Below, one piece after another: positions 4,222 through 34,434 of a stretch of DNA of 58,123 nucleotides. The notes under the pieces are model-generated. The model was not told the origin of the DNA and did not search any database. It saw only the letters and a list, made by a program, of their open reading frames with translations. Positions within the stretch are counted from its first letter, which is position 1, and each line of letters opens with the position of its first letter. Origin of the DNA: Actinomycetota bacterium (GTDB lineage Bacteria > Actinomycetota > Actinomycetes > S36-B12); assembly GCA_046091195.1 (NCBI GenBank), contig JBJTBD010000065.1:1-58123 (forward strand). Direction: 5' to 3'. Made by a program: the position numbers and the translations under genes.

Positions 4222-4255
4222 CAAAGGCCCGCATCCCGAAGGATGCGGGCCTTTG
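4222..4255. terminator. perfect 15-bp stem / 4-nt loop hairpin between convergent genes (bidirectional terminator candidate)
   Basis: CAAAGGCCCGCATCC-CGAA-GGATGCGGGCCTTTG. Lies between the stop at 4214 (+) and the stop at 4270 (-). No clear U-run on either side. Confidence 0.7.
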
Positions 4256-4269
4256 CTGACGCCTGAGGG

Positions 4270-4590
4270 CTACTTCTTCTTCCGACGGACAGCCTTCTTG
4301 GCTGCCTTGCGCGGAGCTGCCTTCTTGGCTGCCTTCTTAGCAGGACGACGCTTGGCTGCCTTCTTCGCCGCCTTCTTGGCCGGACGCTTCTTCGCTGCCT
4401 TACGCGGTGCTGCCTTCTTCGCTGAGCGCTTCTTTGCAGCCTTCCTGGCCGGAGCCTTCTTTGCTGCCTTCTTCGCTGTGCGCTTGGCTGCCTTCTTGGC
4501 AGGGCGCTTCTTGGCTGCCTTCTTGGCTGCCTTGCGAGGTGCCGCCTTCTTGGCCGACGCCTTGCGAGCAGTCTTCTTTGCGACCGCCAC
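4270..4590 (-). CDS. Lys/Ala-rich histone H1-like repetitive protein
   Basis: GTG start (cac 4588-4590) lies 4 nt after AGGAGG. 106 aa made almost entirely of AKKAAKK/PRKAAKK repeats (VAVAKKTARKASAKKAAPRKAAKKAAKKRPAKK...). No HU or Lsr2 domain. Confidence 0.7.
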   Translation of the reverse strand: MAVAKKTARKASAKKAAPRKAAKKAAKKRPAKKAAKRTAKKAAKKAPARKAAKKRSAKKAAPRKAAKKRPAKKAAKKAAKRRPAKKAAKKAAPRKAAKKAVRRKKK

Positions 4591-32327: not shown

Positions 32328-32956
32328 CGTCGCCGCCAGACGTCAAGGCCGACGATCGCGGCGACCGCGAGCACGCCGAGGGTCCACCACGGTGTTCCGG
32401 ACGACTCCTCCGATGGAGCCTGGGCGACATCCGACGCCACGGGTGCGGGTTCCGGGGCGTCGATGATCGGCGCGCATTCCTCCCGCGGGAATCCATCGAT
32501 GCCGCAGAGGAAGCCGCCGTCGGCACGGACATCCGCGACAGCGGACAGGCTCTGGAACCCGTTGGCACCGGCGTCGACCACGGCGCATTCAGTCCTCGGT
32601 GCCGGTGGCGTCTCACCCGCGGGCGCGATGTCGGCCGTGCCGAAGTCGAGTACCACGGCGACGGCCTTCTGACCCTGGTTCGATGCGACGGTGCCACAGG
32701 CCTGCTGCCAGACCCGGCGTGGATCCAGGGTCGGTGGCCCACCTGCATCGGTCATGCCTTCCGACACCACGAAGGTCCACCCCTCGACATCCCCGTCCTG
32801 AGGGATCGTGGTTCCCGCTCCCTGGGCCGCGTACGACCAGGCACCGTCCGAGCCGTTCCAATACGACCAGTAGCGCGTCAGGCCCTCGGCGTGTGCGGTG
32901 GGTGCGCCGATGAAAGCCGCTGTCACGGCACAACCCACCAGCACACGACGGATCAC
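32324..32956 (-). CDS. secreted, C-terminally membrane-anchored protein (SCO2322-family-like)
   Basis: GTG start (cac 32954-32956) overlaps the upstream stop (GTGA). Signal peptide VIRRVLVGCAVTAAFIGAPTAHA, a Cys-containing domain (RYWSYWNGSDGAWSYAAQGAGTTIPQDGDVEGWTF...), a Pro/Glu/Ser linker, and a C-terminal TM segment plus RRR stop-transfer (WWTLGVLAVAAIVGLDVWRRR). Confidence 0.6.
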   Translation of the reverse strand: MIRRVLVGCAVTAAFIGAPTAHAEGLTRYWSYWNGSDGAWSYAAQGAGTTIPQDGDVEGWTFVVSEGMTDAGGPPTLDPRRVWQQACGTVASNQGQKAVAVVLDFGTADIAPAGETPPAPRTECAVVDAGANGFQSLSAVADVRADGGFLCGIDGFPREECAPIIDAPEPAPVASDVAQAPSEESSGTPWWTLGVLAVAAIVGLDVWRRR

Positions 32957-33972
32957 CGCATCGACCCCGTCAGCGCTGACGCGAGATTGACGCCACCGAA
33001 ATTGCGCGGCGATGTTCCCGTTGCTTCCGCCACCATGAGGAGGAGGCCGATCGCACCGGGATTGGCCACGCCACCCTTCAGCGCATAGTCGCGCGCTGCC
33101 GAAGTCAGTGTGCGCGTACCGGTTCGCACAGCGGCGCGGCCGACGCCGAGCTCGCTGAGTCCGATCACGGCGCGGGCGGTGGAGCCGAGGTCCTGACCGG
33201 TTCCGAGGTCGGATGTGAGCGAGCCTTTCGCGGTGATCTGCGACGCGAGATACCTCGCCAGGCGCGTGGGCATGCCCTTCCCGCACGGCGGATTCCGCGT
33301 CAGAGTCCCGGCCCGATCAATGGGAAGACTCGCCGCGACGCCGGCGATCGTCTCGGATGACGCGAGGGAATTCGCTGCGCCACCCGCCTGGTACGGGAGG
33401 GCTCCTGCCGATGCGCTCCCGCAGGGGAACTGCAGGGAGGCAAGGAAACGGACCGCATTGGGGACACGCGCACTGCGATCCTGCGGACTCACGGTGCGGA
33501 GTGCCGCGATCGCGAGGGCGGTGGAGTTGGCATCGGACTCGCCACCGGCGTAGTACGGCCAGCCCCAGTCGTCGTTCTGCGCATTGTTGAGCCACACGAC
33601 CGCCTTACGTGCCGCCGACTGCTCTCCGACGAGGGCGAGTGCTGTGGCTGCGGCGGCCGTGGAATTGACGTCCGGTCCGCTGAATGCGGTGGGATTCGAC
33701 GCGGTGCACGGCACCGTGGTGTTCGTGCGGTACGCCTCGAAGCTGCCGTCGGCACATTGCTGTCCCAGGAGCCAGGTGATCGCAGAAGGCGCGGGCGGAA
33801 GATCCACCGATGTCAGTCCCATGATGGCCAGGGACTGACGGAGGACGCCGTCGTAGACGGGGTCCGTTGATCCGTACAAGCCGCGATCCGCCGCATGGGC
33901 TGGTGCAGCGATGGTGATGGCTACGGCGGATGCCACACAGAGTGACAGTGCGCTGCGCAGAATGCGTGTCAT
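32953..33972 (-). CDS. secreted prenyltransferase/squalene-oxidase repeat (alpha/alpha-toroid) protein
   Basis: 339 aa. Signal peptide MTRILRSALSLCVASAVAITIAAPAHA. Repeated QW-like motifs (LLGQQCADGSFEA, LNNAQNDDWGWPYY, LASLQFPCGSASAGALPY). GAGAGGAA Shine-Dalgarno sequence upstream. First gene after the riboswitch. Confidence 0.75.
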   Translation of the reverse strand: MTRILRSALSLCVASAVAITIAAPAHAADRGLYGSTDPVYDGVLRQSLAIMGLTSVDLPPAPSAITWLLGQQCADGSFEAYRTNTTVPCTASNPTAFSGPDVNSTAAAATALALVGEQSAARKAVVWLNNAQNDDWGWPYYAGGESDANSTALAIAALRTVSPQDRSARVPNAVRFLASLQFPCGSASAGALPYQAGGAANSLASSETIAGVAASLPIDRAGTLTRNPPCGKGMPTRLARYLASQITAKGSLTSDLGTGQDLGSTARAVIGLSELGVGRAAVRTGTRTLTSAARDYALKGGVANPGAIGLLLMVAEATGTSPRNFGGVNLASALTGSMR

Positions 33973-34016
33973 GTGTTCCTCTCACTAAGCGGTCGGACAC
34001 GCTCTCGAGAGGGCCG

Positions 34017-34045
34017 AAAAAAGAGTCCCTTCCAATGGAAGGGAC
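34017..34045 (-). terminator. intrinsic terminator of the riboswitch expression platform
   Basis: GUCCCUUCC-AUU-GGAAGGGAC followed by UCUUUUUU. An upstream GGGACG (34070-34065) can pair with CGUCCC (34046-34041) as an antiterminator. Confidence 0.75.
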
Positions 34046-34190
34046 GTTCGGTTGCCCGAGCGCTCGTCCCGTTACCTCGACGGATGGAGCCGCTCGTACC
34101 TGCCAGGTGCTCCGACTCGCCGAAAGGCACACGGTTGCGGGACAGCGCCGGAATCTCACCGGACTTCCCCTGGACTTCAGGTACGTGGAT
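34017..34190 (-). promoter_or_regulatory. cobalamin (B12) riboswitch: aptamer 34095-34185 plus antiterminator/terminator expression platform
   Basis: Minus-strand RNA: P1 CGUACCUG...CAGGUACG. Core GGGGAAGUCCGGUGAGAUUCCGGCGCUGUCCCGCAACCGUG. B12-box-like GAGUCGGAGCACCUGGC. Followed by the terminator listed as its own feature. Confidence 0.85.
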
Positions 34191-34224
34191 GTAGTTGTGT
34201 TCGGACCCTACTGCATCGTGGGCG

Positions 34225-34434
34225 TCATTCGGGCGGATGCAGACTCATCGGTCCGTAGACCTCACGTCCATCCTCCAGAAGGGACACCTGATCGACGCCC
34301 TCGCCCAGGAGATCGCGCCAAAATTCGCCGATCCACGACTCGGCATCTGCTTGGGAGGGGAAGGAGCCTCCAGGGTTGAGGGTCACGTTCACCGGCGTGT
34401 CGTCGAAGCGCAGGTACGACCAGGTCCAGGACAT
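34225..34434 (-). CDS. small hypothetical protein
   Basis: 69 aa (MSWTWSYLRFDDTPVNVTLNPGGSFPSQADAESWIGEFWRDLLGEGVDQVSLLEDGREVYGPMSLHPPE). GC3-rich. Begins 7 nt after the AKR stop. No family recognised. Confidence 0.5.
   Translation of the reverse strand: MSWTWSYLRFDDTPVNVTLNPGGSFPSQADAESWIGEFWRDLLGEGVDQVSLLEDGREVYGPMSLHPPE

Follow-up and report, generated by a model that had tools for sequence, protein, structure and literature searches.

A compact class-II cobalamin riboswitch with a terminator-like hairpin upstream of a probable B12-uptake operon in a member of the Actinomycetota

Contig JBJTBD010000065.1 of the GenBank assembly GCA_046091195.1, from a bacterium that GTDB places in the Actinomycetes (S36-B12), carries a small regulatory element, a cobalamin riboswitch, between a conserved small open reading frame (ORF) and the operon that it appears to control. 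The stretch of DNA that was analyzed comprises positions 1 to 58,123 of this contig and is called the window below; coordinates are those of the window and, unless another strand is named, features lie on its minus strand. The first gene of the operon has its start codon at 33970-33972 and encodes a secreted alpha/alpha-toroid protein of 339 residues (ORF 32953-33972) which passes the Pfam cut-offs of Prenyltrans and SQHop_cyclase_N, SQHop_cyclase_C scoring below its own. Genes for a CbiQ-like T component and a fused ATP-binding cassette (ABC) ATPase follow and, to judge from these sequences, the operon most likely encodes a B12 importer of the energy-coupling factor (ECF) type. A search of a genome collection, from which 80 related toroid-gene loci were kept, places the aptamer upstream of this gene and co-directional with it in 77. 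Here, we examine this element and suggest that it probably switches the B12-uptake operon off by premature termination of transcription, acting as a compact class-II (Cbl-IIb-like) riboswitch.

A preliminary description, made from the sequence of the window, had already read the element as a cobalamin riboswitch, and this identity is borne out by two curated covariance models, RF01689 and RF01482, which both belong to the Rfam clan CL00101. In an Rfam scan of the whole window the sole match above a curated cut-off was that of RF01689 (AdoCbl-II, for adenosylcobalamin), with 51.3 bits against a gathering cut-off of 36.5 (E 1.4e-9) over model positions 1-81, at 34183-34097. A search of the element's own assembly (1.53 Mb in 78 contigs, 78.6% complete) reproduced this match at the same place and gave in addition that of RF01482 (AdoCbl), which scores 53.6 bits against a cut-off of 50 and aligns over all 149 model positions, from 34198 to 34058, taking in an unpaired 5' leader, the aptamer and a hairpin, P13, that follows it. 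The model RF00174 (Cobalamin, mostly class I) reaches 29.2 bits (E 8.9e-6), which is under its cut-off of 31.5. It was by this model that the preliminary description had wanted its reading judged, and taken to the letter that reading would have to be dropped, yet the two other models of the clan are passed; we have rejected RF00174 as the fitting model and have not taken its score as evidence against a riboswitch. The shortfall points to a compact class-II element rather than to one of class I. Searches with the three models converge on one place, and they found no other element of the cobalamin clan in the assembly. The aptamer match is far beyond chance, the conserved core positions are all intact in the alignment to RF01689, and by its sequence the element is an ordinary member of an already catalogued compact riboswitch type.

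The same alignment provides the architecture of the aptamer. Helix P1 (34183-34178/34102-34097) has 6 bp, extendable to 8 bp (34185/34095), and its arms, CGUACCUG at 34185-34178 and CAGGUACG at 34102-34095, are located just where they had been placed before. Within P1 are P3 (34173-34169/34107-34103), P4 (34163-34159/34151-34147, with the T-loop-like L4 at 34158-34152), P5 (34144-34142/34138-34136) and P6 (34134-34132/34114-34112); the hairpin CCGG-UGAGAUU-CCGG, which had been labeled P3, is P4 with L4 in the standard numbering. The conserved core was read correctly, as was the B12-box-like GAGUCGGAGCACCUGGC at 34118-34102, which is made up of the 3' end of L6, the 3' strand of P6, the linker J6/3 (AGCA) and the 3' strand of P3, and which corresponds, in the alignment, to conserved columns of RF01689 that read AGUCnGAGCnCC. 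The linker J1/3, AAGU (34177-34174), has 4 nt and is 3 nt shorter than in the consensus of the model. P6 spans 34134-34112 and holds inside it a 4-bp hairpin, UGCC-UUUC-GGCG with its flanks (34121-34130), a 10-nt insertion when compared with RF01689; in relatives, hairpins that differ in sequence and length take this position. Loop L5, UCCCG at 34138-34142, equals the published consensus (PMC10327014), and its CCCG is identical in every related leader that was read. The model alignment contains neither a P2 stem-loop between P1 and P3 nor a P7-P11 extension. Cbl-II riboswitches lack precisely the P2 arm and P7-P11, and the Cbl-IIb group combines a short J1/3 with a short P6 hairpin (PMC7367189); in its sequence the element has this compact, Cbl-IIb-like class-II build and not that of the classical class I. 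Cbl-IIb members are reported to bind adenosylcobalamin (PMC7367189), and class II as a whole ranges from AdoCbl-selective to methylcobalamin-selective members (PMC6158498), a range of selectivity so wide that the preferred corrinoid form is not readable from the sequence.

Between this aptamer and the operon stands the hairpin GUCCCUUCC-AUU-GGAAGGGAC (34045-34025), of 9 bp with 6 G-C pairs and a 3-nt loop, directly followed by the U-run UCUUUUUU (34024-34017). The preliminary description had recognized it as a terminator, the terminator scans agree, and RNAfold assigns the hairpin -15.9 kcal/mol with its flanking bases. With strict settings (a perfect stem of at least 7 bp and at least 6 U in 8), scanning the two strands of the window yielded 34045-34017 and one other, weak site, which indicates that such structures are rare in this G+C-rich genome. 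The second match, at 4248-4271 on the plus strand, has a weak stem with G-U pairs. In the relatives, a hairpin with a U-run lies 23-37 nt after the L13 motif of P13 in about 40 of 103 non-redundant leaders, and its stems differ between genera (GUCCCUCAUGC.../...GCAUGAGGGAU in one case, CCCCUCUUCGGU.../...ACCGAUGAGGGG and CCCCCGACUGC.../...GCAGCGGGGG in others). From this comparison of sequences the structure is a real intrinsic-terminator-like hairpin, conserved in position in several related genera.

The part of the element that could link the binding of a ligand to the fate of this terminator is the hairpin P13 with its loop L13 and the kissing loop in which L13 may engage, all of which the preliminary description had missed. 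The segment after P1, CGAGCGGCUCC-AU-CCGU-CGAGGUA-ACGG, is almost unchanged from the window's own genus out to Streptomyces. It folds (RNAfold, -17.5 kcal/mol) as P13 at 34057-34096, with an outer stem CGAGCG-G-CUC/GAG-CGCUCG, an internal loop, an inner stem UCCGU/ACGGG and the loop L13, CGAGGUA, at 34079-34073. The consensus of RF01482 contains this hairpin, with the loop UCGAGGcAA, and the relatives match that model across its full length; P13 with L13 is, as judged from these alignments, a known and curated part of the family. Among 77 non-redundant aligned leaders the four apical pairs are kept, the fourth pair of the inner stem being U-A in 61, U-G in 10 and C-G in 5, and in the window's genus the outer stem stands in a shifted register. 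The CG-N-GG of L13 is nearly invariant in the same leaders, with U as its middle base in a few relatives, a variability which is expected of an unpaired position.

Published work on this interaction has established that L13 needs a stem-loop to present it, that every kissing loop leaves one or more bases unpaired and that perfect pairing lets the loop form even when ligand is absent. Because these rules fit it, we infer a register in which CCCG of L5 (34141-34138) pairs with CG-A-GG of L13 (34079-34075) and the A stays unpaired. Another candidate for the role of L13 was CGGGAC (34071-34066), a perfect 6-nt complement of GUCCCG at L5 that pairs with it in the lowest-energy fold. It was rejected, as it is not conserved (CGGAAC, CGGUGC or CGGAGC elsewhere), as its CGG belongs to the inner stem of P13 while L13 must be a hairpin loop, and as so perfect a pairing would, according to the published work, assemble in a ligand-free state.

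These elements suggest the following switch, parts of which remain conditional. With a corrinoid bound, the aptamer would fold into P1 and the four-way junction P3-P6, and L5 would kiss L13 in the register given above and thereby lock P13; the C-rich 5' arm of the terminator would be left free to pair with its own 3' arm, and RNA polymerase would stop at the U-run. With no ligand, the kissing loop would not secure P13, whose 3' half (with two of the kissing bases) would pair with the 5' arm of the terminator, and transcription would continue into the gene of the secreted toroid protein and those of the ECF transporter. The preliminary description had proposed an antiterminator pairing of GGGACG (34070-34065) with CGUCCC (34046-34041). 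Both strands are present, and they form the core of the lowest-energy fold of a nascent platform ending in the terminator loop, in which GG-U-AA-C-GGGACG (34076-34065), a stretch that overlaps both L13 and P13's 3' half, has CGUCCC-UU-CC (34046-34037) as its partner, while the 5' half of P13 folds upon itself. This fold is computed at -21.2 kcal/mol, compared with -17.5 for P13 alone or -18.8 for the whole region before the arm; before the terminator is completed, the candidate antiterminator is about 3 kcal/mol more stable than P13. The same order of stability is found in all 26 of the 26 non-redundant related leaders that have a terminator. In the finished isolated platform, P13 with the terminator reaches -34.7 kcal/mol versus -24.1 with the antiterminator enforced. 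The antiterminator helix takes two of the four kissing bases, so that it and the kissing loop are mutually exclusive.

A number of results weigh against this mechanism. The duplex energy of the 5' arm of the terminator is not above that of 200 shuffled arms (z = -0.05), and the gain of the nascent fold in the window, -2.4, is equaled by that of 100 shuffles (-2.4 +/- 1.9), 44% of which are as good; averaged over the leaders, the gain is -7.6 for the real and -5.7 for the shuffled arms. A C/U-rich arm finds the G-rich 3' half of P13 in any base order, and in this respect the antiterminator proposed earlier, correct in its bases, is no better than chance. When 31 whole nascent leaders were folded without constraint, the partner of the arm was the 3' half of P13 in 13, the GGGRAA of the aptamer in 7 and other parts of the aptamer in 11; with partners other than the 3' half of P13 in 18 of the 31, such folds yield no consensus and were rejected as a means of choosing the partner. 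The equilibrium favors the terminator over the antiterminator state by about 10 kcal/mol, so that read-through would be a matter of kinetics. Since L5 and L13 show no variation, covariation lends no support to the kissing loop. Most of the scored leaders, among them all those of Streptomyces, have no terminator according to the scan, which makes termination a lineage-specific output of a shared sensor. Finally, the ribosome-binding bases of the first operon gene (GAGAGG) have an unpaired probability of at most 0.03 in both modeled states. They are held in a hairpin at 33978-34012 (CCUCUCG 34012-34006/UGAGAGG 33984-33978, inner stem GAGCG/CGCUU; RNAfold -18.1 kcal/mol), and termination may thus not be the sole control. 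With all this taken into account, the antiterminator, and with it the mechanism of kissing loop, P13 and antiterminator, is plausible on the folding models.

The closest experimental precedent is the metE corrinoid riboswitch of Priestia megaterium, a transcriptional OFF switch in which the kissing loop sets the competition between P13's 3' side and the terminator's 5' side, a logic that was proven by compensatory mutations (PMC10327014). The logic proposed here is the same: kissing of L5 with L13 would stabilize P13, P13 is interrupted by an internal loop, and by calculation the antiterminator somewhat exceeds P13 in stability. The metE element has five contiguous kissing pairs, UCCCG:CGGGA, whereas CG(A)GG would form four pairs and a bulge, and two of the kissing bases are, in addition, taken up by our candidate antiterminator; the present element, moreover, is known from sequence and folding. 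The env8 hydroxocobalamin riboswitch (Cbl-IIa; PDB 4FRN, cited in PMC7367189; PMC5028336) is likewise a compact class-II element with one or more unpaired purines in L13, a loop carried on a stem-loop that a short linker, J1/13, joins to P1. It acts on translation, however, with the ribosome-binding site inside L13, whereas in the present element over 100 nt separate L13 from the start codon downstream and L13 is followed by an intrinsic terminator; env8 also has a bulged T-loop in J1/3 and only a loop on P6, unlike the element described here. From the Cbl-IIb type as represented by RF01482 and RF01689 (PMC7367189) nothing of substance differs: the build without P2, the J1/3 (4 nt here), the short P6 hairpin, the L5 UCCCG and an L13 of the UCGAGG type are shared, and the peculiarities are a shorter J1/3, the 10-nt hairpin insertion in L6 and the shifted register of outer P13. 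The arrangement of riboswitch and ECF genes is itself already known, having been published for the acI actinobacteria (Nanopelagicales), whose ECF modules are preceded by cobalamin/AdoCbl riboswitches found with RF00174 and RF01482 (PMC5301498). These are small-genome freshwater actinobacteria with no B12 synthesis pathway, in which the ECF module is taken as the B12 importer; the present genome is that of a G+C-rich relative, and the acI paper reports the presence of the riboswitches only, with no analysis of the expression platform (PMC5301498).

The ligand-free state could also be reached by other means, the main rival being an antiterminator that is built with the aptamer itself, in the same riboswitch and with the same terminator, a solution that we consider unlikely. 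The 3' half of the aptamer (34161-34103) would pair with the platform (34096-34049) in a long imperfect helix, AGGGGA of the core (34171-34166) would capture UCCCUU of the terminator arm (34044-34039), and a ligand that locks the aptamer would prevent this capture. When the nascent leader is folded without constraint, the energy minimum is indeed such a helix (-65.1 versus -44.2 kcal/mol with the aptamer helices enforced), which includes GUCCCG:CGGGAC and GCGCU:AGCGC; the seven leaders in which GGGRAA is the partner of the arm include all six of the window's genus; and in models published for other corrinoid riboswitches, bases of the aptamer take part in the alternative fold. The complementarity depends, however, on CGGGACGAGCGCUCGG, which is common to few genera, others having CGGAACGGAGCC and similar sequences, and in the very same folding calculation the terminator wins once its 3' arm exists. 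Nearest-neighbor folding ignores, moreover, tertiary structure and the order imposed by transcription, and G+C-rich RNA commonly offers long alternative helices, the z of the leader as a whole being only -2.1. As an observation, the two segments (34103-34161 and 34049-34096) share some 35 pairs, distributed in pieces, and the unconstrained fold that they give undercuts the aptamer fold by 21 kcal/mol when tertiary terms are left out of the model; this may represent a trap for the ligand-free RNA or a mere effect of G+C content. Far less credible is a decayed or non-regulating look-alike whose hairpin and U-run simply end the transcript of the upstream genes (a DUF3043 gene, an AKR gene and the small ORF), a reading that we hold to be most improbable. 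Those genes are co-directional with the element and, as the preliminary description had noted, have no terminator of their own before it, and that much would suit a look-alike. Two curated models are nevertheless passed at full length with every conserved core position intact, the element precedes the same operon at nearly all of the related loci, and a riboswitch normally has its terminator where this one lies, between an intact aptamer and the operon (here 45 nt ahead of the start codon).

A different kind of rival places the main output, or an additional one, at translation, and this we regard as possible though doubtful. The box GAGCGG (34095-34090), directly after P1 and made up of J1/13 and the base of P13, would pair with CCGCUU (33992-33987), just upstream of the ribosome-binding site, and so set the access of the ribosome, with the hairpin at 34012-33978 acting as sequestrator. 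GAGCGG occurs in most leaders of the Nanopelagicales type and, overlapping the base of P13, could sense the formation of that hairpin. Among the matches listed, its partner, which is CCGCUC in most relatives, is found a few bases upstream of the purine-rich tract in front of the start codon. Comparison of 49 non-redundant GAGCGG leaders reveals an exact CCGCUC in 38 and a complement that tolerates G-U pairs in 45, against 4.5 expected from dinucleotide shuffles; the variants CCGCUU and CUGCUC keep the pairing by way of G-U. Ten platforms were folded, and several of them, for the most part lacking a terminator, form the helix at their energy minimum; the ribosome-binding site is buried in the window's genus. 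GAGCGG is invariant, however, which excludes a two-sided covariation, and forcing the helix in the window costs 4.7 kcal/mol in a pseudoknot-free model. Nor is sequestration of the ribosome-binding site general: strong in the window's genus only, it was rejected as a feature of the whole group, the mean unpaired probability across genera being 0.39 compared with 0.44 for shuffles. Termination as the proposed output and this pairing can also be combined, in that P13 could tentatively be viewed as a two-output switch whose 3' half (34076-34065) goes to the terminator arm for the control of transcription and whose GAGCGG goes to the CCGCUC/CCGCUU box for that of translation. If this were true, a single ligand-dependent hairpin would gate both levels, and the link between the boxes would be ancestral and widely kept in relatives that have no terminator. 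By its sequence the box pair is real and conserved and a long-range helix between its members possible; current models leave the pair unexplained, and it is the only feature that deserves follow-up.

Upstream of the element, the co-directional ORF of 69 residues (34225-34434) ends with its stop at 34225, shortly before the start of the RF01482 match at 34198. This ORF is a real gene, conserved across genera (42-62% identity), has no Pfam match and adjoins the riboswitch in most related loci, in about half of which it is on the opposite strand; in those genomes the riboswitch must have its own promoter. A putative -10 hexamer, TAGGGT (34205-34210), is located 27 nt before the model-defined start of P1 at 34183. 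Of the 30 leaders listed, 15, which represent five groups of relatives, have a hexamer of the form TANNNT (TAGGGT, TAGGAT, TAAGGT) that starts 27-30 nt ahead of P1, and in other genera TTGACA is found some 17-18 nt further upstream of the hexamer, at the distance of a -35 element. A scan for the sigma-70 consensus promoter gave nothing at 34205-34210, and the proposal of a -10 element draws on the conservation of position. From these comparisons the element probably has its own promoter here too. The preliminary description had suggested that the riboswitch gates read-through from the upstream genes; such read-through is possible in the window's genus, but the -10-like hexamer before P1 and the divergent small gene of so many related loci make it unneeded. 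The unpaired 5' leader between hexamer and P1 (ACAACUACAUCCA, 34186-34198), which corresponds to positions 1-13 of RF01482, is kept in other genera as CACAACUGAAUCC or a similar sequence and may hold the start of transcription, predicted near 34198-34196.

In the wider group, 70 of the 101 related genomes have a match above the cut-off of RF01689, and almost all of these have just one. The element is the only cobalamin sensor found in its assembly, and it would control what is apparently the sole route of B12 entry. Two ORFs of that assembly have a B12-binding domain (C1:11983-12339 and C50:11136-11393), one of them with 1189 residues and MetH-like by its length; CbiC, CobS and MetE were not found in the assembly, which is 78.6% complete. 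A MetH-like gene without CbiC, CobS and MetE fits, on these sequence searches, a B12 auxotroph, and the organism appears to need the vitamin and not to make it, which is in keeping with vitamin-dependent freshwater actinobacteria of streamlined genome. For the study of riboswitches the group has a modest value in that its leaders, about 100 in number, constitute a natural series of class-II platforms with and without a terminator. To our knowledge, there is no Cbl-IIb structure, nor any dissection of the platform, for this group. The nearest records are metagenome-assembled genomes from lakes labeled Actinomycetota or Candidatus Nanopelagicales. Five loci with this operon (L033, L035, L038, L054 and L059), from public metagenome-assembled genomes and with 45-86% protein identity, are titled Rubricoccaceae, Rubrivirga or Bifidobacterium breve, which looks like mislabeled taxonomy.

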